A stretch of 23,729 bases of DNA, taken from the IMG/VR virus record IMGVR_UViG_2651869696_000004; one strand, given 5' to 3'. Source of the DNA: a virus. Lineage: Duplodnaviria; Heunggongvirae; Uroviricota; Caudoviricetes. This document shows, one piece after another, positions 107 through 22,887 of this stretch. The translations under genes were made by a program, and so were the position numbers. The notes beneath the pieces are model-generated. The model had not been told where the DNA came from, searched no databases, and saw only the letters and a list, made by a program, of their open reading frames with translations. Numbering within the stretch: position 1 is the stretch's first letter; each line of letters opens with the position of its first letter.

Positions 107-946
107 TTGGTTGATGGTTTTGGCACAACCCCCATCTCACACTTTGGATATCGCATCGCAGACTATGATGTGACGACACTTTATCCGCTTGCTTTGTTCA
201 TTTCGATAGCTAACATCGCTGATGATGAGAAAGCAGCCATGTATAATGATCTTGTCTCCTACGTAGTACGAAGAGCCGTATGTGGCCTGACGCCAAAGAA
301 TTACAACAATGTATTTATGAATGTATTGCGGCACTTGGCTAAAACGGAAATTTCCAGTGTTGAGTTACGTAATATCCTCAATAACTTAAATGGCGAAGCC
401 TCACGTTGGCCTGGTGACTCAGAATTTCTCAACGCTTGCATCAATGCTCCACTTTATCCTGGCAGGCTCGACGCACCGAAAATGCGCTCAATGTTAACGG
501 AACTTGAAAGAGAACTTTGTCGCCAAGTGAAGACCGAAAAGCCTGATGTTCCAAATCTTTCTAATCTCGATATCGATCATCTTATGCCCCAAAGTTGGTA
601 TTCCTGTTGGCCTCTCGAAAATGGTCGTATGGTGACAAATTCAGATGCTACGGTATTGAACCAAATTGTTCTGTCTGGAACCGATCTTACCCCTGAACAG
701 CTACTGGTAAGGAAACGGCAACAAGCGATAGCTACTTTGGGAAATCTAACTTTGCTTAACCTTAGCGTAAACCGTTCTGTTCAGAATGCTGTATTTCTGA
801 AAAAACGTGATGCTCTCATCGTCCACACCAATCTACGACTGAACATTCCACTTATAGTTAAGGATAAATGGGATGAGGATGAAATCCTGGAGCGGGGTAA
901 AAATTTGGGGGAAATTGCATTGAAAGTATGGCCAAAACACGATTAA
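107..946 (+). CDS. DUF1524/GmrD-like His-Me finger (HNH-type) nuclease domain protein; start codon uncertain (TTG at 107 or ATG at 239)
   Basis: Motifs DIDHLMPQS and GNLTLLNLSVNRSVQNAVFLKKRD match the DUF1524 signature found at the C-terminus of GmrSD-type enzymes; in-frame stop at 8-10 excludes a longer N-terminus in this frame; appears lower in GC than the phage genes by eye. Confidence 0.7.
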   Translation: MVDGFGTTPISHFGYRIADYDVTTLYPLALFISIANIADDEKAAMYNDLVSYVVRRAVCGLTPKNYNNVFMNVLRHLAKTEISSVELRNILNNLNGEASRWPGDSEFLNACINAPLYPGRLDAPKMRSMLTELERELCRQVKTEKPDVPNLSNLDIDHLMPQSWYSCWPLENGRMVTNSDATVLNQIVLSGTDLTPEQLLVRKRQQAIATLGNLTLLNLSVNRSVQNAVFLKKRDALIVHTNLRLNIPLIVKDKWDEDEILERGKNLGEIALKVWPKHD

Positions 947-1041: not shown

Positions 1042-1170
1042 CTAGGTCTCGGACTTTGTACCGCTTATCTTGTTTTCAAAAATCAGCTCGCATCCTGCAC
1101 AGTTCAGCGCATTACGTTGTAGATCTGTGTTCTGGTCATTTGTTGATACGCGTACATAGCCAATAAGCAT
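1042..1170 (-). pseudogene. Serine DNA invertase (Gin/Pin/Hin/Cin family) N-terminal remnant, 43 codons then TAG
   Basis: Minus-strand translation from ATG at 1170 gives MLIGYVRVSTNDQNTDLQRNALNCAGCELIFENKISGTKSET*, which matches the conserved invertase N-terminus including the catalytic Ser in YVRVST; similarity ends about codon 40 and no downstream invertase sequence is present. Confidence 0.85.
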
Positions 1171-1224
1171 GGTAGATCCCCCTGACAAAAGCAGGAATGA
1201 TGCCATTTGCTCGTTATTTCTGCA

Positions 1225-1250
1225 TTTTCATAAACGTTGGTTTGGGAGAA
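1225..1250. repeat. Left crossover site of invertible segment (TTTTCATAAACG-TT-GGTTTGGGAGAA)
   Basis: 26-bp site with two 12-bp half-sites around a 2-bp core; inverted relative to 3145-3170 with a 14-bp perfect match; resembles gix/hix/pix architecture. Confidence 0.7.
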
Positions 1251-1747
1251 GGCTCTGCATTACCTGCGGTGTGCCTGTTCCGTGGCCTTCCGCCACTCCG
1301 CCGACAGGCTGGCTGAAATGCAATGGTGCGGCTTTTTCTGCTGAAGAATACCCGGAACTGGCAAAGGCTTACCCGACAAATAAATTGCCTGATTTACGCG
1401 GTGAATTTATTCGTGGCTGGGATGATGGGCGTAGTGCGGATGCGGGGAGAACAATATTATCCGCTCAGGGCGATGCCATACGTAATATCTATGGTGAGTT
1501 CAAGACTGTAAACACCGAAAATTATTCAATATGGGAATCAGTAGGCTCGTTTAAGGGGGCAGTGGTGCCTTTGAACCCCTCAACGAACAATAGTTATTTC
1601 TCCTTAGTCAGAAGTATGGTGACAGAAAGGTCCGAGGGCGGTGTTTACCCAAAAGTGATTGGCCTTGATGCTTCAAGAATTGTTCCAACTGCAAACGAAA
1701 ATCGACCCCGTAACATTGCCTTTAATTATATCGTGAGGGCTGCCTGA
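1251..1747 (+). CDS. Alternative tail-fibre C-terminal cassette (Sv'-like) with tail-collar domain; no start codon of its own; out of frame with the crossover site as it stands
   Basis: PVPWPSATPPTGWLKCNGAAFSAEEYPELAKAY...LPDLRGEFIRGWDDGR is a phage tail-collar-type motif; the track ORF 1169-1747 reads through the invertase start and the crossover site, so its first 27 codons are not genuine. Confidence 0.7.
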
Positions 1748-2349
1748 TGGATAAAGCTATATTAAATAAGGAACTCATCGCCACAAAGGCGGGAGATATT
1801 ACCGTTTATAATTATGATGGTGAAACACGAGAATATATTTCCACATCAACCGAATATCTTGCTGTGGGTGTCGGTATCCCGGCATGTTCCTGTTTAGATG
1901 CTCCTGGCTCATATAAAGCTGGTTATGCAATTTGCCGTTCTGCAGATTTTAACTCATGGGAATATGTGCCAGACCATCGCGGTGAAATCGTCTATAGCAC
2001 CGAAACAGGAGAATCAAAAGAAATCACAGCTCCGGGTGATTACCCTGAAAAGACAACCACTATCGCCCCGTTAACGCCATACGATAAATGGGATGGTGAG
2101 AAATGGGTGACGGATACCGAGGCACAGCATAGAGCAGCAGTAGACATGGCAGAAACACAGCGGCAGTCGCTGATTGATGCTGCAATGGTTTCCATTAGTC
2201 TGATTCAACTGAAATTGCAGGCCGGGAGGAAGCTGACGCAGGCAGAAAACACCCGACTTAACGCCGTGCTGGATTACACTGACGCGGTGACGGCAACAGA
2301 TACCAGCACCGCGCCGGATGTCATCTGGCCTGAACTGCCGGAGGCGTAG
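1747..2349 (+). CDS. Tail fibre assembly protein (Tfa), partner of the alternative fibre cassette
   Basis: 200 aa; start overlaps the cassette stop (TGATG); C-terminus DYTDAVTATDTSTAPDVIWPELPEA is similar to the C-terminus of the convergent Tfa. Confidence 0.8.
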   Translation: MDKAILNKELIATKAGDITVYNYDGETREYISTSTEYLAVGVGIPACSCLDAPGSYKAGYAICRSADFNSWEYVPDHRGEIVYSTETGESKEITAPGDYPEKTTTIAPLTPYDKWDGEKWVTDTEAQHRAAVDMAETQRQSLIDAAMVSISLIQLKLQAGRKLTQAENTRLNAVLDYTDAVTATDTSTAPDVIWPELPEA

Positions 2350-2773
2350 GCCATTCAATATCTGGAGCACTGGAGGTATCAACCAGCTCCAGTGCGTCCA
2401 GATAATCCAGCCACAAATTATATTGCGCCAGTTCGTCACCTTTCAGACGACCAATAGCGGCTTTACCAGGCCATTGTTTACTGTTCATATAATCGTTGGC
2501 CTGATTAATTAGTAGCTGTCTTTCTGATTCAGTAATTTCAGTAAGTTCTTCATGCGTAGGGGCAGGAATATCCGCCCACGCGGGCAGCCCATCACCTCCG
2601 GCAATACGGATTTTTCCTTGTGGCGGTTCAGCCATAAATTCACTGATAATATTTTGACTCACCTCCTTAGCATCTGATAAATCCCATCCCTCTGATTTAT
2701 ATTTATCAATCATATCCACAGGGAAAAAAGCATTATGCCTTGCGCTATAAACATATTCGTTCATATAAATCAT
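2321..2773 (-). CDS. Tail fibre assembly protein (Tfa) for the currently expressed fibre
   Basis: 150 aa immediately downstream of the fibre gene; conserved Tfa C-terminal region LWLDYLDALELVDTSSAPDIEWP; 3' ends of the two tfa genes overlap convergently at 2321-2349. Confidence 0.8.
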   Translation of the reverse strand: MIYMNEYVYSARHNAFFPVDMIDKYKSEGWDLSDAKEVSQNIISEFMAEPPQGKIRIAGGDGLPAWADIPAPTHEELTEITESERQLLINQANDYMNSKQWPGKAAIGRLKGDELAQYNLWLDYLDALELVDTSSAPDIEWPTPPAVQAR

Positions 2774-2784
2774 CCTGAATAAAA

Positions 2785-3447
2785 TTATTCACCAACAGCC
2801 CACCAACTGTAAGTCATTGACACCTTGTCGCTGGTTGATGCAGTTCTGTAAGCAGAATTAAAGCCGGTTAATGTTGGGCCTTCTACGGACATAACGAATC
2901 CACGCCCTGCACCAAAAGGCGCACCGCCATCGCCAGAATGGGTAAGAATGGCGATATCCGCTTTTTTAGGGAAAGGGATAGGAAATGTAATCCTCATTGT
3001 TTGCGTCGATAATTTCGGCATAGCCTCACCTCGACCATATTGCAGGATTTTCCCGTTGGGTAATTTCATCCATCCATCACCACTGGCAAAAGAGGTCATG
3101 TCCGGTATCTGATTTTCCCCTGTCCCCACCCCTCGTTTTGCTGCTTCTCCCAAACCAAGGTTTTCGAGAGCCGTTTTCACCGTGCCATCCGATTTGATAT
3201 CACCAAACGGATTCTTGCGGCTTAACAGCAGAGCACGAAGCGCGGTAAGCAACTGGTCGTTTCGCCCCTTCTCCAGGCTGGCACCGGATGCCTCCACCAC
3301 GCTGCAAAGCTCCTCCTGCAACATATCAAAGTAGTCATCATCCAGATCGGTGGCAGGTGTGCCGGTCTGGGGGTTACCACGGGTAAAACCGTTCTTACCC
3401 GCGCCGAACTTATCCTTCTGCGCGGTTTTCGTGTCTATACGATGCAT
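2785..3447 (-). CDS. Tail fibre protein (StfP-like); constant N-terminal part outside and variable C-terminal part inside the invertible segment
   Basis: 220 aa directly downstream of the gp48-like gene; crossover site 3145-3170 falls at codons 93-101 ([12 protein letters not shown]). Confidence 0.8.
3145..3170. repeat. Right crossover site of invertible segment (TTCTCCCAAACC-AA-GGTTTTCGAGAG)
   Basis: Inverted copy of the 1225-1250 site; core dinucleotides are identical when the sites are aligned in the same orientation. Confidence 0.7.
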
Positions 3448-8508: not shown

Positions 8509-10344
8509 TTACCTGCCAAAGCGCGTATAGCCAACATCATGGCTGACATCAAAACCGCTGGATCGCGTTTCCATAACCCGCATACCCGGAGGCGAATTCA
8601 CAAAAGAGACCTTGATCTCACCATCAACTTTTGGCGCAGAAGCTTTGTTAATCATGAAGGGATTCGGGCCTGTGGCATCGGAGGCGTTGTTTGACTGAGC
8701 CGGATCTACCGCCGGATAAGGTGTGTATCCCCGCGCCGGTATTCCCGTCCCATAAGCATCATAAGCACCCGCGCCCCACTGCGCAGAGTTAATGGCATCG
8801 ACCGTGTCACCGGAACTGTCGGTAAACCACTCAATAATTGGCTTCAGCTTGTCCCACATATTCTGAAACCACTTAACAACCGGTCCCCAGTTATTGATGA
8901 CCATCCCCAGCGGCGACCAGGCAAAAACTTTCTTCAGAAGTTCCCAGCCAGCCTCAAAATAAGGACCAATGGTTTCCCAGAGTTTCTTAAAATAAGGTCC
9001 GACAACATCCCAGTTAGTGATAATTAATCCCGCAGCCAGGGCTATCGCCGTCGCAATCATGCCAATCGGCGTCATCGACATGATCCTGCTGACAATACTG
9101 ATGGCACCGCCAACGCCCATCAATCCCAGTTTCAGAATCGCAAGACCGGCAGCAAGCCCGACGACGCCGCGAATAACCCGGGGATTTTCATCCGCAAACT
9201 TCGTGAATTTTTCCCCTAACACCCCCAGCCATTGCGTGATATTTTTAGCGTCACCAGAAAATGCGCCGCCAATAGCTGCAAGACCGTTAGTTGCGGTCCC
9301 CGTCATTGCCTCCCACAGGTTGGACAGCGTACCAAGCTGTGCCTGAACACGTTTATTCAGGCTGGCCTGTTTATTCATCTTCTGCTGGATCTGATCGTAG
9401 CCATCCTTTCCTTTATCGATTAGTGCATTGACCACCTGAAGGGTTTCGGCATCATCACCAAATATTGCCTTAAGTACACCTGTTCGCTTAACGTCGGTCA
9501 GTTTTCGCAGCTTTGCCAGTTGCCTGAACATGTTATCAAGACCGCCAAAACTTCCTTTGCCGTCAGTAAAATCGAGCTGTACCCCGAGTTTCTGGCGGGC
9601 CATGACTTTATTGACGTCCCTGATTTTCTTAACGCTTAATCCGGACTGGATAACTTTTCGCAGGGCATTACCTGCCGACTCCCCGTTCATCCCCATCTGA
9701 TCCATCATGACGCTGATGGGGGCAAGGCTCTGTGCAGCCTGAAGACCGTCCTTGTTCACCATCTTCAGAACAGAGCTGGTTTTAGTGAAGAAGGACAACA
9801 TGTTGGTATCGTCAACGCCCAGATAAAACGCCTTCTGGATAGTGTCGAACAGCCCCATCATGTCTTCTGACGCCGTTCCGGTAGCATCCTGCATCTTTGC
9901 GGCAAACTCAGCAGCCGCTTCCGGTGTTTTTTTCAGTTGTACCGCAAGATAAGCAGTCGCTTTCCCCACACCGCCAAGAATGTTTTCTGCCGGGATCCCC
10001 TGACGCACCAGCATCTGCATCATGTTCTGGAAATCAGCCGTTGTACCGGGTAGCTGGTTACCCAGACCAATAGCCAGTTTATTGATGTCCTGAAAGCTCT
10101 TTCCGACCTCACCGTTCGCATCCATCATGGCAACTTTCAGCCCGGTGGCGGCGTTTTCCTGATCGGCATAAGATTTCAGGGAAAGCGTCAGACCCGCTGC
10201 CAGTCCGCCACCAAGCGCCAGCCCACCCTGTGACGCTTCTTCCGCCTGGCGTTTAAATCCCCGGATTTTCTTTTGCATTTTCGACAGCGCGGGAGAAAGC
10301 CTGTCGACACCGGTGATCAACGCCTTAAGCTCAAATTCAGCCAT
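8509..10344 (-). CDS. Tail tape measure protein
   Basis: 611 aa; Gly/Ala-rich hydrophobic central segments; sits downstream of the chaperone pair. Confidence 0.85.
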   Translation of the reverse strand: MAEFELKALITGVDRLSPALSKMQKKIRGFKRQAEEASQGGLALGGGLAAGLTLSLKSYADQENAATGLKVAMMDANGEVGKSFQDINKLAIGLGNQLPGTTADFQNMMQMLVRQGIPAENILGGVGKATAYLAVQLKKTPEAAAEFAAKMQDATGTASEDMMGLFDTIQKAFYLGVDDTNMLSFFTKTSSVLKMVNKDGLQAAQSLAPISVMMDQMGMNGESAGNALRKVIQSGLSVKKIRDVNKVMARQKLGVQLDFTDGKGSFGGLDNMFRQLAKLRKLTDVKRTGVLKAIFGDDAETLQVVNALIDKGKDGYDQIQQKMNKQASLNKRVQAQLGTLSNLWEAMTGTATNGLAAIGGAFSGDAKNITQWLGVLGEKFTKFADENPRVIRGVVGLAAGLAILKLGLMGVGGAISIVSRIMSMTPIGMIATAIALAAGLIITNWDVVGPYFKKLWETIGPYFEAGWELLKKVFAWSPLGMVINNWGPVVKWFQNMWDKLKPIIEWFTDSSGDTVDAINSAQWGAGAYDAYGTGIPARGYTPYPAVDPAQSNNASDATGPNPFMINKASAPKVDGEIKVSFVNSPPGMRVMETRSSGFDVSHDVGYTRFGR

Positions 10345-10519
10345 GTGTGCGTTTCTCCTGCTCTATCCTGTTTGCCTGACTGACCAGCAAGGGAATTTCA
10401 CTGATCGGCATATTCAGCAATTCGAAGGGATTAATGCGCCAGTAGCTGGCGCAGTCAAAGAAGCGATCAGTGAGGTATTCAGCCGTCAGGCCTGGAGGAA
10501 AAAACCGGCCACAAGCCAC
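10337..10519 (-). CDS. Tail assembly chaperone -1 frame extension (GT-like)
   Basis: ORF in the -1 frame overlapping the 3' end of the chaperone gene and running to the tape measure start. Confidence 0.6.
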   Translation of the reverse strand: MACGRFFPPGLTAEYLTDRFFDCASYWRINPFELLNMPISEIPLLVSQANRIEQEKRTHG

Positions 10520-10755
10520 GCCGCTGCATTCAGGTCTGCCGGAGACATCTGGTCGACAGAGTTTTGCGGCACTTTCGCCAGCCGCACAATGTATTTCGAT
10601 ACCACATGCGCCAGAAGTCTGACGGACTCATCCTGATTCATCTGGTAGGGATACCCCAGCTCGCGGACATCTTTCCCGGTGGGCTCATCAAACTCCAGTA
10701 CGGAGAGTGTCTCGCCATGAGCGGTAATCGGTTTCTTTAACTCAAGCTCTTTCAT
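10486..10755 (-). CDS. Tail assembly chaperone (G-like, Mu gp41 analogue)
   Basis: 89 aa between tube and tape measure genes; ends 6 codons after a slippery heptamer. Confidence 0.65.
   Translation of the reverse strand: MKELELKKPITAHGETLSVLEFDEPTGKDVRELGYPYQMNQDESVRLLAHVVSKYIVRLAKVPQNSVDQMSPADLNAAAWLVAGFFLQA
10498..10504 (-). promoter_or_regulatory. Candidate -1 programmed frameshift slippery heptamer T_TTT_TTC
   Basis: Minus strand reads gcc ggT TTT TTC ctc cag gcc tga in the chaperone frame; the overlapping ORF is in the -1 frame. Confidence 0.5.
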
Positions 10756-11111
10756 TACTGGTAATCCCCTTCTTCACCGTGGAACTCAAGATCGACCGTG
10801 CCTTCTTCGGCATTATGGTTCGCTTCGCCGTGCAGCCAGGCAGACGACAGTACATAGACCTGACCGTTCGCCAGCTCGGCAGTGATGGTCATCTCATCAG
10901 ACGAGGTGATTTTGCTCACCGGAAAATTCTTCGGCACCTTGAAGGTCCCTTTGACATAAGGCGCACGGTGAGTTTCCTTGCGGTCCACTGAACCGTCCAG
11001 GCCGATGATGTCATCATTGACCGTCCTGTTCATGGGCACCTCAATGCCGCCGGTCAGCGATAGCTGCTGACCGTCAATTTTGAAATAACAGGTTCCCCCG
11101 ATACGGGCCAT
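10755..11111 (-). CDS. Tail tube protein (Mu gp40-like)
   Basis: 118 aa immediately downstream of sheath gene. Confidence 0.8.
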   Translation of the reverse strand: MARIGGTCYFKIDGQQLSLTGGIEVPMNRTVNDDIIGLDGSVDRKETHRAPYVKGTFKVPKNFPVSKITSSDEMTITAELANGQVYVLSSAWLHGEANHNAEEGTVDLEFHGEEGDYQ

Positions 11112-12607
11112 TATGCAGACTCCTCTGAATACTGAAGACGGAACTGATTAACCACGGCAAAGACACGCAGCTGGTTAACATAGTCAGGCGGGAACAGCGT
11201 GTTCAGGCGGTTCGGATCGCTGGCATCACGCTCCACAACCAGGTACTGCTTAAACAGTTCGTAGTTTTCCACGATCCCCGCACGCTCAAGCTGACGGTAG
11301 GTTGCCAGCAGTTCCCCTTTGATCACCGCCGGGGTGACAATCGCCTGACCGGGACCAAAGCGGGTACCGTCACTGGCAAGCTTGTGACGCCCGTACTTAC
11401 TGGTAATGACGGATTTCAGTTTGCGCAGTACATACGCGCTGGTATGCAGCGTCTCACTGTCGAGGTAACTGTTATCCGCAACCCCGTAAGCGTTTTTCCT
11501 GTACGTGGTGACATCACGCTGAATGCGTAGTACCCCGTTTTCGACATACGCCGTTGCCACGCCATGAGACAGCAGGGTCTGTTGTTCGGTCATCGTGAAC
11601 CGTTTCCCCTTCGGCGCAGGCAGCATACCCACCAGCTCACCGGTCTGCGTGGGACGTGCCGGATCGTTGCGGATAAACACCGCTGCGCGGGCGGTACGGC
11701 TTGCCGCCAGCTCGTCGGCAGGCGTCTGGGTCTCTTTTTCGTACCCCGCCAGGGTAATGTGCTGCTGGTTAAACTGGTCACCTGCGGTCACCAGTTCTGA
11801 CAGCGTGCCGATCTTTGCCGTATACACATGACCATACAGCTGACGCGCATAGCTCCAGCGACCGCTGGTATCGTTCATCTCGGTCACCAGCGTGTTAACG
11901 GAGGCCGTGTCGTTGAACGGCAGGCCGATATAATCAAACGGCTCATCCGCCATTGCAGCCACCGCGCCGGTGAGAACAGGAGAGCCCGTTCCGGCGGTCC
12001 CCGTCGCCACGGCAATCTGTACGCCCGCAGGCAGCACTTCGCCCCCACCAAAGCCGTAGTAATTGAGGCTGACAGGAATTTCATTCCCGCAAAGCCCCTT
12101 ATGACGCGCGGTCAGTGTGACCACGCCAGCCGAAGATGAGGCCGTAAACGGCAGGGCCGGAACGGCATTGATGGCATCCTGGATACTGCTGGCAATCGTC
12201 GTGACGTTATCGCCGTTAGTCACCGGTGCCTGCACGCGGGTACGTCCCACATAAACATTCACCGTGCCGGTTTCGGTTGCCGCCCCGGTCACCGTCAGCG
12301 TAACTGTTGCCGCCGCGCCCGTGGATTCAGGAACGGCAATTACATACAGTTCACCAAACGGGTCGGTCTGGCGATAAGCCTCGACCATACGCGCCAGCTG
12401 ACTTCCCGCACCACAAATCTGGCGTGCATAGTCTGCCGACGGCATCAGCACCAGACTGTTGGCAACAATCTCTGCACCGTTATTGGCATGACCAATCAGC
12501 AGCGATGCTCCGCTGTCCTGTGCAGTATTCGCCGCCTGGTTATCCATTTCCGCATAAAACAGCGGAACCAGCGTATTCGACGGAATGGTGTTAAAGCTTA
12601 TCGTCAT
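11111..12607 (-). CDS. Contractile tail sheath protein (Mu L / gp39-like)
   Basis: 498 aa; position and size; followed by the tube gene with ATGA overlap. Confidence 0.85.
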   Translation of the reverse strand: MTISFNTIPSNTLVPLFYAEMDNQAANTAQDSGASLLIGHANNGAEIVANSLVLMPSADYARQICGAGSQLARMVEAYRQTDPFGELYVIAVPESTGAAATVTLTVTGAATETGTVNVYVGRTRVQAPVTNGDNVTTIASSIQDAINAVPALPFTASSSAGVVTLTARHKGLCGNEIPVSLNYYGFGGGEVLPAGVQIAVATGTAGTGSPVLTGAVAAMADEPFDYIGLPFNDTASVNTLVTEMNDTSGRWSYARQLYGHVYTAKIGTLSELVTAGDQFNQQHITLAGYEKETQTPADELAASRTARAAVFIRNDPARPTQTGELVGMLPAPKGKRFTMTEQQTLLSHGVATAYVENGVLRIQRDVTTYRKNAYGVADNSYLDSETLHTSAYVLRKLKSVITSKYGRHKLASDGTRFGPGQAIVTPAVIKGELLATYRQLERAGIVENYELFKQYLVVERDASDPNRLNTLFPPDYVNQLRVFAVVNQFRLQYSEESA

Positions 12608-12769: not shown

Positions 12770-13330
12770 TCAGGAAGGAAGGGTTATTTCGGTGTGATGT
12801 TCGATATCGCCGTCAGGCCCGTTACCGGGATCGAGATAATCAACATCAATCGCCAGCGTTCGCAGTTCATCCAGACTGTTCAGGTCATCCTGCTGGCGGG
12901 TATCGTCTTCAGTCAGCTCGCTGATGATCGAAAAATCGAACTGATAAATCAGCTCATGACGATTCAGATCCAGCAGCGTGCCGCCGTCATAGTTAATCGG
13001 ATTACCGCACGCTTCCGGGTTCCAGCCCAGCAGGGCCTTAAAGAGCATCTGCCGGACATCGTCCACCACATCATACGAAGCAAACTGACCGCGCTCATCA
13101 CGCCCGTTACTCAGTATGACAACCACGGAGAAGCCCTCTTTCAGCTCCTGCCAGTAGTCGGTCTGGCTTTTGTTTTCTCCCGGAGAATCATCCCCCGGTA
13201 CCACATACGCCGCCGGGAGTCTCAGCTTTCCGACCTCCGGCAGATTTTTGAACTGTGCCGCGCCTGCAACCCGGTTTTCAAAATACGGACAGCGGGCACG
13301 CAGTGCAGCAATAACAGGCGTCAGTTTCAT
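12770..13330 (-). CDS. Putative tail completion / neck protein (virion structural, acidic)
   Basis: 186 aa; position between head-tail joining genes and sheath; assignment by synteny only. Confidence 0.45.
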   Translation of the reverse strand: MKLTPVIAALRARCPYFENRVAGAAQFKNLPEVGKLRLPAAYVVPGDDSPGENKSQTDYWQELKEGFSVVVILSNGRDERGQFASYDVVDDVRQMLFKALLGWNPEACGNPINYDGGTLLDLNRHELIYQFDFSIISELTEDDTRQQDDLNSLDELRTLAIDVDYLDPGNGPDGDIEHHTEITLPS

Positions 13331-13833
13331 CTGTGTCGTCGCTCCGGCTTCAGTGATTTACGCAATTCCCGCGCCAGAAAATAGCGTGTCCAGCTGTGGT
13401 TCTTTTCAAGCGTTTCCACCATGAAGTTATTACGTGGAGCCAGTCGCCAGCCTCTGCCACCGGATGCACCACGATGATGGCTGCGACGACGCTTTGCCCC
13501 TCTCTTCACGCCATAGAACAAAAAAGCCGGATAAAAATCACCGGTGATGCGGCGGTTTCCCTCACCATTACGCTGGTTAGGGGCTATACGTGCCATAAAA
13601 CCAGGGCGATGTTTACTGGCTCTGGGTACCATGTAACCAATCGAACGAGCCAGGCGTCCGGTCTGATAACCGGGGTTTTCACCCGGTGCCGACCGCGCAC
13701 GGCGCATCACCAGCCGACGGGCATCACGCATATGACGCTGACCAATCGTGACAAACGCCCGCCGGACACGGGCGCGGTTAAAGCGCATCTCCGCGGGCTG
13801 CTGAAAATCAACGTGCAAAAAGGAAGTCGTCAT
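13327..13833 (-). CDS. Head-tail joining protein (HK97 gp10-like family, tentative)
   Basis: 168 aa, basic; synteny downstream of adaptor. Confidence 0.5.
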   Translation of the reverse strand: MTTSFLHVDFQQPAEMRFNRARVRRAFVTIGQRHMRDARRLVMRRARSAPGENPGYQTGRLARSIGYMVPRASKHRPGFMARIAPNQRNGEGNRRITGDFYPAFLFYGVKRGAKRRRSHHRGASGGRGWRLAPRNNFMVETLEKNHSWTRYFLARELRKSLKPERRHR

Positions 13834-22474: not shown

Positions 22475-22810
22475 TTACTCCTTAGAGCCACCAAACTTGT
22501 TACCGATTACTCTCATTGCAGCCCCACGAATTGCATCGACCCCGATCAGCCCCACCCCACCACCAATGGCAACAGAAAGCGATTTAGGCCATCCGACATA
22601 CTCAAGCGCGGATGCAAAGGTCAGCGTCAGAGCGCCACAGAGCAAAATTTCGAGTGTTTTTCGTTTCCAGCCGCCACCACCACCAAAATAGGCAATACGC
22701 AAACCAGCCATAACAATCGACATAATCACTGCGCCCAGCGGCGTATCTCCACGCCACCAGCTCTGGAACAACTCCAGCCAGTCCGGCCAGGTATTTGGGT
22801 TATGAGGCAT
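22475..22810 (-). CDS. Putative holin (three predicted transmembrane segments); start set at ATG 22810
   Basis: Immediately upstream of endolysin; three hydrophobic segments and charged C-terminus; GAGGTGA upstream of ATG 22810; the track start at 22882 is a GTG inside the terminator hairpin. Confidence 0.55.
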   Translation of the reverse strand: MPHNPNTWPDWLELFQSWWRGDTPLGAVIMSIVMAGLRIAYFGGGGGWKRKTLEILLCGALTLTFASALEYVGWPKSLSVAIGGGVGLIGVDAIRGAAMRVIGNKFGGSKE

Positions 22811-22852
22811 TTCGTCATCTCTCACCTCGCGATTATTTGCGGGTGCTGTGTT

Positions 22853-22880
22853 GGAAATAAAAAGGCCACGCAACGTGGCC
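22853..22880 (-). terminator. Intrinsic terminator on the late-gene strand (7-bp GC stem, 3-nt loop, then TTTTTATTT)
   Basis: Minus strand reads GGCCACG-TTG-CGTGGCC followed by TTTTTATTTCC; lies between methyltransferase stop and holin start. Confidence 0.6.
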
Positions 22881-22887
22881 ACCAGAA

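Follow-up and report, generated by a model that had tools for sequence, protein, structure and literature searches.

The tail gene cluster analysed here probably carries an ordinary programmed -1 frameshift like that of P2 E/E+E', which would yield a short and a fused form of the tail assembly chaperone. The cluster lies in a 23,729-nt stretch of DNA (hereafter the window), in which the first-pass annotation had proposed a candidate programmed -1 frameshift; that proposal is strongly supported by the comparative sequence evidence presented below.

Megablast searches identified the window as part of an SfV-like temperate myophage or prophage of the Shigella/E. coli type, with ~97% identity to vB_EcoM-689R6, SfI, SfV and SfII over the whole window and 98-99% identity to the same phages over a 1-kb interval. 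The minus-strand gene order is sheath, tube, an 89-codon chaperone ORF, a 142-nt interval, tape measure and a gene for a DNA-circulation protein. Within this long-tail cluster the chaperone gene is thus flanked by the tube and tape measure genes, as initially suggested, and the Pfam and PHROG matches of its neighbours agree with this placement; the sheath gene is also labelled tail sheath in SfV and related records. The relevant features are as follows:

11111-12607, minus strand: contractile tail sheath, 498 aa (Pfam Phage_sheath_1, Phage_sheath_1C and Phage_sheath_domII)
10755-11111, minus strand: tail tube, 118 aa (Pfam PF10618 Tail_tube, E = 2.4e-33; phrog_185, tail tube protein)
10486-10755, minus strand: tail assembly chaperone, zero-frame product of 89 aa (PF10109 Phage_TAC_7), with its stop TGA at 10488-10486
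10498-10504, minus strand: slippery heptamer T_TTT_TTC (P-site TTT 10503-10501, A-site TTC 10500-10498)
10337-10498, minus strand: -1 frame extension, 53 codons plus TGA 10339-10337 (phrog_32181 match and -1-frame third-position variability)
10435-10453, minus strand: hairpin or palindrome, possibly associated (folding energy and conservation)
8509-10344, minus strand: tape measure protein, 611 aa (Pfam PF10145 PhageMin_Tail; PHROG tape measure families)

Near its end, the zero frame of the chaperone gene reads ...GTG GCC GGT TTT TTC CTC CAG GCC TGA on the minus strand. The heptamer T_TTT_TTC (10504-10498) occupies codons 85-86 of 89, and direct reading confirmed both the coordinates given for it in the first-pass annotation and its X_XXY_YYZ phase. 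The zero-frame TGA (10488-10486) lies three codons past the heptamer. Read from 10498, the -1 frame continues CCT CCA GGC... (first codon CCT, 10498-10496) and stays open for 53 codons up to the TGA at 10339-10337, where its stop overlaps the tape-measure start (ATG 10344-10342) within ATGGCTGA, in an 8-nt overlap; a second ORF in the -1 frame reaching the tape measure start was therefore present, as had been claimed. The deduced coding sequence of the fusion is complement(join(10337..10498,10498..10755)), with base 10498 read twice, and the predicted product comprises 86 + 53 = 139 aa with the junction peptide ...AGFFPPGLTAEY...; a peptide spanning this predicted junction reads ...WLVAGFFPPGLTAEYLTDR. 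The span originally highlighted, 10486-10519, extends from the chaperone stop to the GTG that opens the -1 ORF (10337-10519, 60 aa) in the mechanical ORF list.

The window contains 14 copies of TTTTTTY, where shuffled sequences gave an expectation of 10.1 ± 3.8, and 19 heptamers in X_XXY_YYZ phase were counted in 6753 minus-strand gene codons. Since the heptamer by itself is found at chance frequency, its significance rests on position and conservation. Only one of these 19, that at 10504-10498, combined a location in the last five codons of its gene with a long -1 ORF ending on the start of the next gene. Other in-phase heptamers included CCCAAAT at 22793-22799 (minus strand; holin-like gene 22475-22882, -1 ORF of 63 codons) and TTTTTTG at 13519-13525 (minus strand; gene 13327-13833, -1 ORF of 29 codons), neither of them at a gene end.

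Conservation of the arrangement was assessed in a survey of 178 loci, 18 from one-genome-per-species contigs and 160 from IMG/VR (123 distinct sequences), and in a further 10 loci reached through diverged protein matches. An in-phase T_TTT_TTY was kept in 187 of these 188 related loci (177/178 in the survey and 10/10 in the extra set). Among the distinct survey sequences the run was TTTTTTC in 120/123 and TTTTTTT in 3/123, located at codons 81-85, while three more distant phages, among them P2 with its experimentally proven shift, carry T_TTT_TTG. The sole survey exception was L085 (IMG/VR 2585427757_000001), which reads GGG TTT TTT CTC, with the run displaced by one base and the X_XXY_YYZ phase broken. 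Nearly all survey extensions were 52-55 codons long, the exceptions being two truncated contigs and the rearranged locus L083, and they ended at the tape-measure start or no more than 32 nt from it, where such a start was found. The 8-nt overlap of the -1 stop with the tape-measure ATG characterises the window group, whereas in other groups this stop is a few nt at most from the start. The surveyed arrangement spans Enterobacterales, Burkholderia and Pseudomonas, and was seen in plaque-forming SfV, SfI, SfII, EPP-1, AH07 and P2.

A tblastn search with the deduced fusion retrieved 30 phage records, with the zero-frame and -1-frame pieces both present in 23 of them, down to 39% identity. Twelve phage relatives and P2 displayed T_TTT_TTC, T_TTT_TTT or T_TTT_TTG at chaperone codons 78-89, followed by 50-63 codons of open -1 frame up to the tape-measure start, and the deduced fusions of these relatives and P2 E+E' could be aligned end to end. 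At the protein level, relatives as far removed as those of the SfIV, ST64B, phiP27, Burkholderia and Pseudomonas groups still had a conserved extension.

Individual loci showed local peculiarities. In L083 (IMG/VR 2541047860_000003) the -1 ORF loses its similarity after ...ELLN and stays open for over 300 codons of unrelated sequence, owing to an insertion, a rearrangement or a chimeric contig. L199 and L200, of the Candidatus Hamiltonella defensa type (an aphid symbiont), keep TTTTTTC with a zero-frame product of 95 aa, and have a second in-phase heptamer, CCCGGGA, three codons later, which opens the same -1 ORF. A T7 run (CGT TTT TTT GAC) located three bases before the distal hairpin described below in some relatives was considered as a second slip site and rejected, as it consists of variable Arg-Phe-Phe codons and reads CGC TTC TTT in the window.

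The base immediately before the run was T across lineages, in codons as different as GGT, CGT, AAT, AGT, CCT and GAT (Gly, Arg, Asn, Ser, Pro and Asp). A constant T in spite of differing amino acids points to constraint on the nucleotide rather than on the amino acid. The block GGTTTTTTCCT, which contains the heptamer, was invariant in 16 homologues with 53% variable sites and is one of the two longest invariant blocks; just upstream of it, the third position of an Ala codon varies freely. The sequence TGGCTGA at the -1 stop and tape-measure start was likewise invariant in the 16 homologues. Codon periodicity was compared in 13 enterobacterial homologues (68-98% DNA identity to the window). 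Split by zero-frame codon position, the variable sites upstream of the heptamer numbered 35/22/75; split by -1-frame codon position, those downstream of it numbered 29/19/42. This switch in periodicity indicates that the coding phase steps back by one at the heptamer. Judged by these substitution patterns, the interval evolves as protein in the -1 frame.

The 89-aa zero-frame product matched PF10109 at 58 bits (cut-off 25) over residues 4-86. This family is Phage_TAC_7, described as 'Phage tail assembly chaperone proteins, E, or 41 or 14', and P2 E+E' scores 47.8 bits on it. PF10109 was the sole match in the Pfam search of the window chaperone at E ≤ 1, which returned neither lambda gpG/gpGT nor the PF23746 family; the NCBIfam search gave no match, and the PDB sequence search gave spurious light-harvesting-complex matches only. 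The -1 extension matched phrog_32181, a family of unassigned function, with E = 3e-41. No match between PF06528 (Phage_P2_GpE, the P2 E' part) and the -1 extension was obtained at E ≤ 10, while P2 E' itself scored 78.7 bits. A profile of 14 diverse extensions was collinear with P2 E' and weakly similar to it in hhalign (E = 0.004, probability 9%), and BLASTP of the window fusion against P2 E+E' was not significant (E = 0.54). An AlphaFold model of the fusion, built with no alignment, had a pLDDT of 51, too poor for a fold search.

Six metagenome or Logan proteins (P0001-P0006) were tried as natural single-ORF fusions and discarded, because each contained several frame errors (e.g. GFSSSLTAEY) and came from a single short contig. 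They look like homopolymer errors in noisy assemblies, and their frame errors indicate that the T6 run misleads gene callers.

RNA folding, recommended in the first-pass annotation as a check for a downstream stimulatory structure, turned out negative at the canonical distance in the window group. No stable structure was found 5-9 nt past the heptamer, where the 38-50 nt downstream fold like shuffles (z = 0.1-0.3), and RNAalifold on 14 homologues revealed no conserved helix at this distance; the site thus lacks the stem-loop or pseudoknot 5-9 nt downstream which forms part of a canonical bipartite -1 PRF signal. A Shine-Dalgarno-like element upstream of the heptamer was also not seen in the sequence read. 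Two candidate structures were rejected: relatives do not preserve a weak GGCC/GGCU stem located 5 nt downstream, and a helix enclosing the heptamer, with covariation at one pair, is broken in 5/14 sequences and would be unwound by the ribosome. Some Burkholderia-group loci (L009, L114-L126 and L129) have a GC-rich hairpin 7-8 nt past TTTTTTC, at canonical stimulator distance; both arms differ between L009 (GGCGTC-TCA-GACGCC) and L129 (CGGCGTG-CGA-CACGCCG), yet the pairing is kept. The window group lacks any comparable proximal hairpin.

A different hairpin was found further downstream at 10453-10435 (minus strand), starting 44 nt past the heptamer. It forms a perfect 8-bp stem with a 3-nt loop, UGCGCCAG-CUA-CUGGCGCA (TGCGCCAG-CTA-CTGGCGCA as DNA, inside the -1 extension and with a single occurrence in the window). 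Its folding energy is -13.7 kcal/mol (z = -4.5, with 0/200 shuffles as stable), and it was the only consistent RNAalifold helix downstream. Among 16 enterobacterial homologues the hairpin is the least variable 19-nt stretch of the chaperone gene pair. All four stem positions open to synonymous change (TGC, GCC, TAC, CGC) are invariant, while 43/53 third positions of the extension vary (chance ~5e-4 in a post-hoc hypergeometric estimate). Two outlying homologues, L028 and L199, have lost the hairpin, and the SfIV and P2 groups lack it; an Rfam scan of 10250-10800 gave one sub-threshold chance match, and the hairpin fits no Rfam family.

At a distance of 44 nt this hairpin cannot act in the way a canonical stimulator does, and it is probably not one. 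The tape measure gene initiates ~90 nt beyond it, and it is reached by frameshifted ribosomes only. We consider it doubtful that the hairpin is a functional RNA element tied to recoding, either as a modulator of the shift frequency at an unusual distance or by coupling translation of the extension to tape-measure initiation. As it shows no covariation, a DNA-level palindrome or codon bias may underlie it; it may also simply result from the CASYWR peptide in combination with codon bias.

Three other explanations of the locus were weighed against ribosomal frameshifting. The heptamer and the open -1 frame might be coincidental, or a fixed mutation in a decaying prophage, leaving the 142-nt interval effectively non-coding. 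The chance frequency of the heptamer in the window fits such an absence of recoding, but the presence of the arrangement in plaque-forming phages and in 187/188 loci, together with the protein-like evolution of the interval in the -1 frame, makes it scarcely credible. The two frames might instead be separate genes, with the -1 ORF translated alone from GTG 10519 into a free 60-aa protein. A GTG-start ORF (10337-10519) does exist in the window, the record ON470584 labels the -1 ORF as a hypothetical protein, and gene callers reported it in L194 and L202. However, this GTG consists of the chaperone's TGG Trp codon together with the variable third base before it, and most relatives have CTG there; the 16 nt preceding GTG 10519 contain no Shine-Dalgarno-like sequence; and 15/28 representative homologues, including P2 and the checked representatives of the SfIV/ST64B/phiP27 clade, offer no start codon (ATG, GTG or TTG) in the -1 frame ahead of the heptamer. 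Downstream, the first start is usually at least 26 codons in, beyond the conserved FDCASYWRINP motif. Independent initiation is accordingly very improbable.

Conservation of the -1 ORF cannot separate ribosomal from transcriptional slippage, because the predicted protein is identical: if RNA polymerase added one U on the T6 run, the resulting U7 transcripts (GGU UUU UUU CCU...) would encode the same 139-aa fusion. Consistent with slippage of the polymerase, the signal is a homopolymer run, 7 T long in the SfIV, ST64B and phiP27 group, and the window group has no canonical ribosomal stimulator. E. coli genes also contain fewer runs of 7 U or A than expected, whatever the frame, possibly as a result of slippage (PMC4066793). 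Productive slippage in bacteria, on the other hand, has been documented on runs of about 9 A or T (PMC5009743), whereas here the run is 6 long in 120/123 distinct sequences, without lengthening. In keeping with the rule for tandem-tRNA slippage, its position invariably fits T_TTT_TTN, where the final N is free to be C, T or G. For the homologous site in P2, both annotation and citing literature speak of a translational frameshift, and the hairpin in Burkholderia-group homologues, 7-8 nt downstream, has the spacing expected for ribosomal shifting. Taken with these observations, transcriptional slippage appears unlikely as the source of the fusion.

We return to programmed -1 frameshifting by the ribosome as the preferred reading. 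U_UUU_UUC allows a single tRNA-Phe species to pair again with UUU at the P site as well as the A site (tandem slippage). As we infer fusion production, its ribosomal nature and efficiency and the division of labour between the domains, most ribosomes would translate from the chaperone start at 10755 to the TGA at 10488-10486 and release the 89-aa chaperone. A minority would slip back by one base on U_UUU_UUC while tRNA-Phe fills both ribosomal sites (UUU in P, UUC in A), after which both tRNAs would re-pair with UUU. The shifted ribosomes would then read 53 more codons and stop at TGA 10339-10337, giving a 139-aa fusion with the first 86 residues common to both products. By analogy with P2 E/E+E' and lambda G/GT, the common N-terminal domain may coat the tape measure protein, while the -1 extension may recruit the tube subunit. 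A fixed low frequency of shifting would, by the same analogy, set the product ratio needed for correct tail assembly, and neither protein would be expected in the virion. H_HH.U_UU.Y motifs are among the most efficient in E. coli (Sharma et al. 2014, PMC4066793), and both U_UU.U_UU.C and U_UU.U_UU.U give more than 0.1% frameshifting in this host without a stimulator (PMC4066793). No fusion protein, reporter assay or mass spectrum for the SfV-like group was found.

The signal is of a well-known kind of tail chaperone frameshift, is real and strongly conserved, and is unannotated in the checked records of the group. None of the GenBank/RefSeq records checked (SfV, SfI, SfII, SfIV, ST64B, phiP27, EPP-1, AH07 and the SfV-like Pseudomonas cluster) contained a joined fusion CDS, and several of them have in its place either 142 nt left without explanation or an isolated hypothetical gene of 60 aa. 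The word 'frameshift' is absent from the SfIV genome paper. Phages of the SfV type may already be listed by Xu et al. 2004. Annotation of complement(join(10337..10498,10498..10755)), and of the corresponding joins in relatives, would complete the set of tail assembly genes, including that of the Pseudomonas tail cluster, and would give phrog_32181 a function. Knowledge of frameshifting itself is unchanged by this result, the value of which lies mostly in annotation.

Two further regions of the window deserve mention. At 1169-2349 (plus strand) and 2321-3447 (minus strand) there are two opposed sets, each with a tail-fibre C-terminus and a fibre-assembly gene. They are flanked by a 20-nt inverted repeat (1232-1251 and 3144-3163, 95% complementary) with the core AAACCAAGGTTT, which resembles the hix/gix/cix crossover sites of DNA invertases. 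The region 1169-3447 looks like an invertible host-range segment, and no invertase gene was identified within the window. Adjoining the tail-fibre region, a 279-aa ORF at 107-946 (plus strand) contains a GmrSD_C restriction-endonuclease C-terminal domain (PF07510, E = 8e-21) and is possibly a prophage-carried defence gene.

Among known systems, membership of PF10109 and the T6 run at the same codon assign the window cassette to the P2 E/E+E' type. The N-terminal domain of P2 E/E+E' belongs to PF10109, as does the window chaperone, and in both phages the chaperone pair immediately precedes the tape measure gene within a cluster for a contractile tail. In P2 the T6 run is at codon 84, in the window at codon 85; the products are 91 and 142 aa in P2 versus 89 and 139 aa in the window, and the -1 stop of P2 E+E' overlaps the start of the tape measure gene T by 8 nt, exactly as in the window. 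Neither has a hairpin at the canonical distance downstream. The two differ in the signal itself, where the last base of the heptamer is G in P2 and C in the window, and the zero-frame stop follows after six codons in P2 and three in the window. The extensions belong to different families, PF06528 for P2 E' and phrog_32181 for the window, with weak profile similarity of the latter to E', and the tail genes around the window chaperone are Mu-/SfV-like, not P2-like. The P2 RefSeq record marks the TTTTTTG site as a -1 translational frameshift. According to the account in PMC3091744, which cites Christie et al. 2002, this site gives E (91 aa) and E+E' (142 aa) by -1 frameshifting. A downstream hairpin is reported to be missing in P2 and its Burkholderia relatives (PMC3091744), and P2-type sites have been reported to shift 2-3 times more often than that of lambda (PMC5009743).

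The first-pass annotation had assigned the pair to the lambda G/GT type, which stands as a functional and architectural analogy, whereas the homology is to P2 E/E+E' (PF10109, with T6 at the same codon). In lambda G/GT, too, the two products begin with the same sequence, an infrequent -1 shift occurs towards the end of the short ORF, and the pair directly precedes the tape measure gene. Its shift reportedly takes place at G_GGA_AAG. No sequence homology to the window was detected, so that the resemblance is architectural only; furthermore, the slipping tRNAs are Gly/Lys in lambda versus Phe/Phe in the window, and the lambda tail is of the siphovirus type rather than contractile. According to the lambda model, coating of the tape measure protein falls to the short chaperone and recruitment of the tube protein to the extension; the ratio of the two products is critical, and neither is found in the virion (PMC5009743).

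The surrounding genes correspond to those of Mu, the window's sheath, tube, tape measure and DNA-circulation proteins being annotated as homologues of Mu L, M, gp42 and gp43, with the chaperone in the same position in the cluster. Mu gp41, however, is a 144-aa protein that matches PF23746 (Gp41_Mu) at 119.5 bits and PF10109 at 24.7 bits, just under the cut-off, and unlike the window chaperone gene it has no in-phase X_XXY_YYZ heptamer. Recoding of Mu gp41 is reported as -2 in the account given in PMC2628397, citing Xu et al. 2004. The different family of Mu gp41 and its missing -1 heptamer indicate that the window cassette is a P2-like element inside a Mu-like tail module, and this P2-type E/E' recoding cassette represents a small, clear case of mosaicism of a recoding signal.
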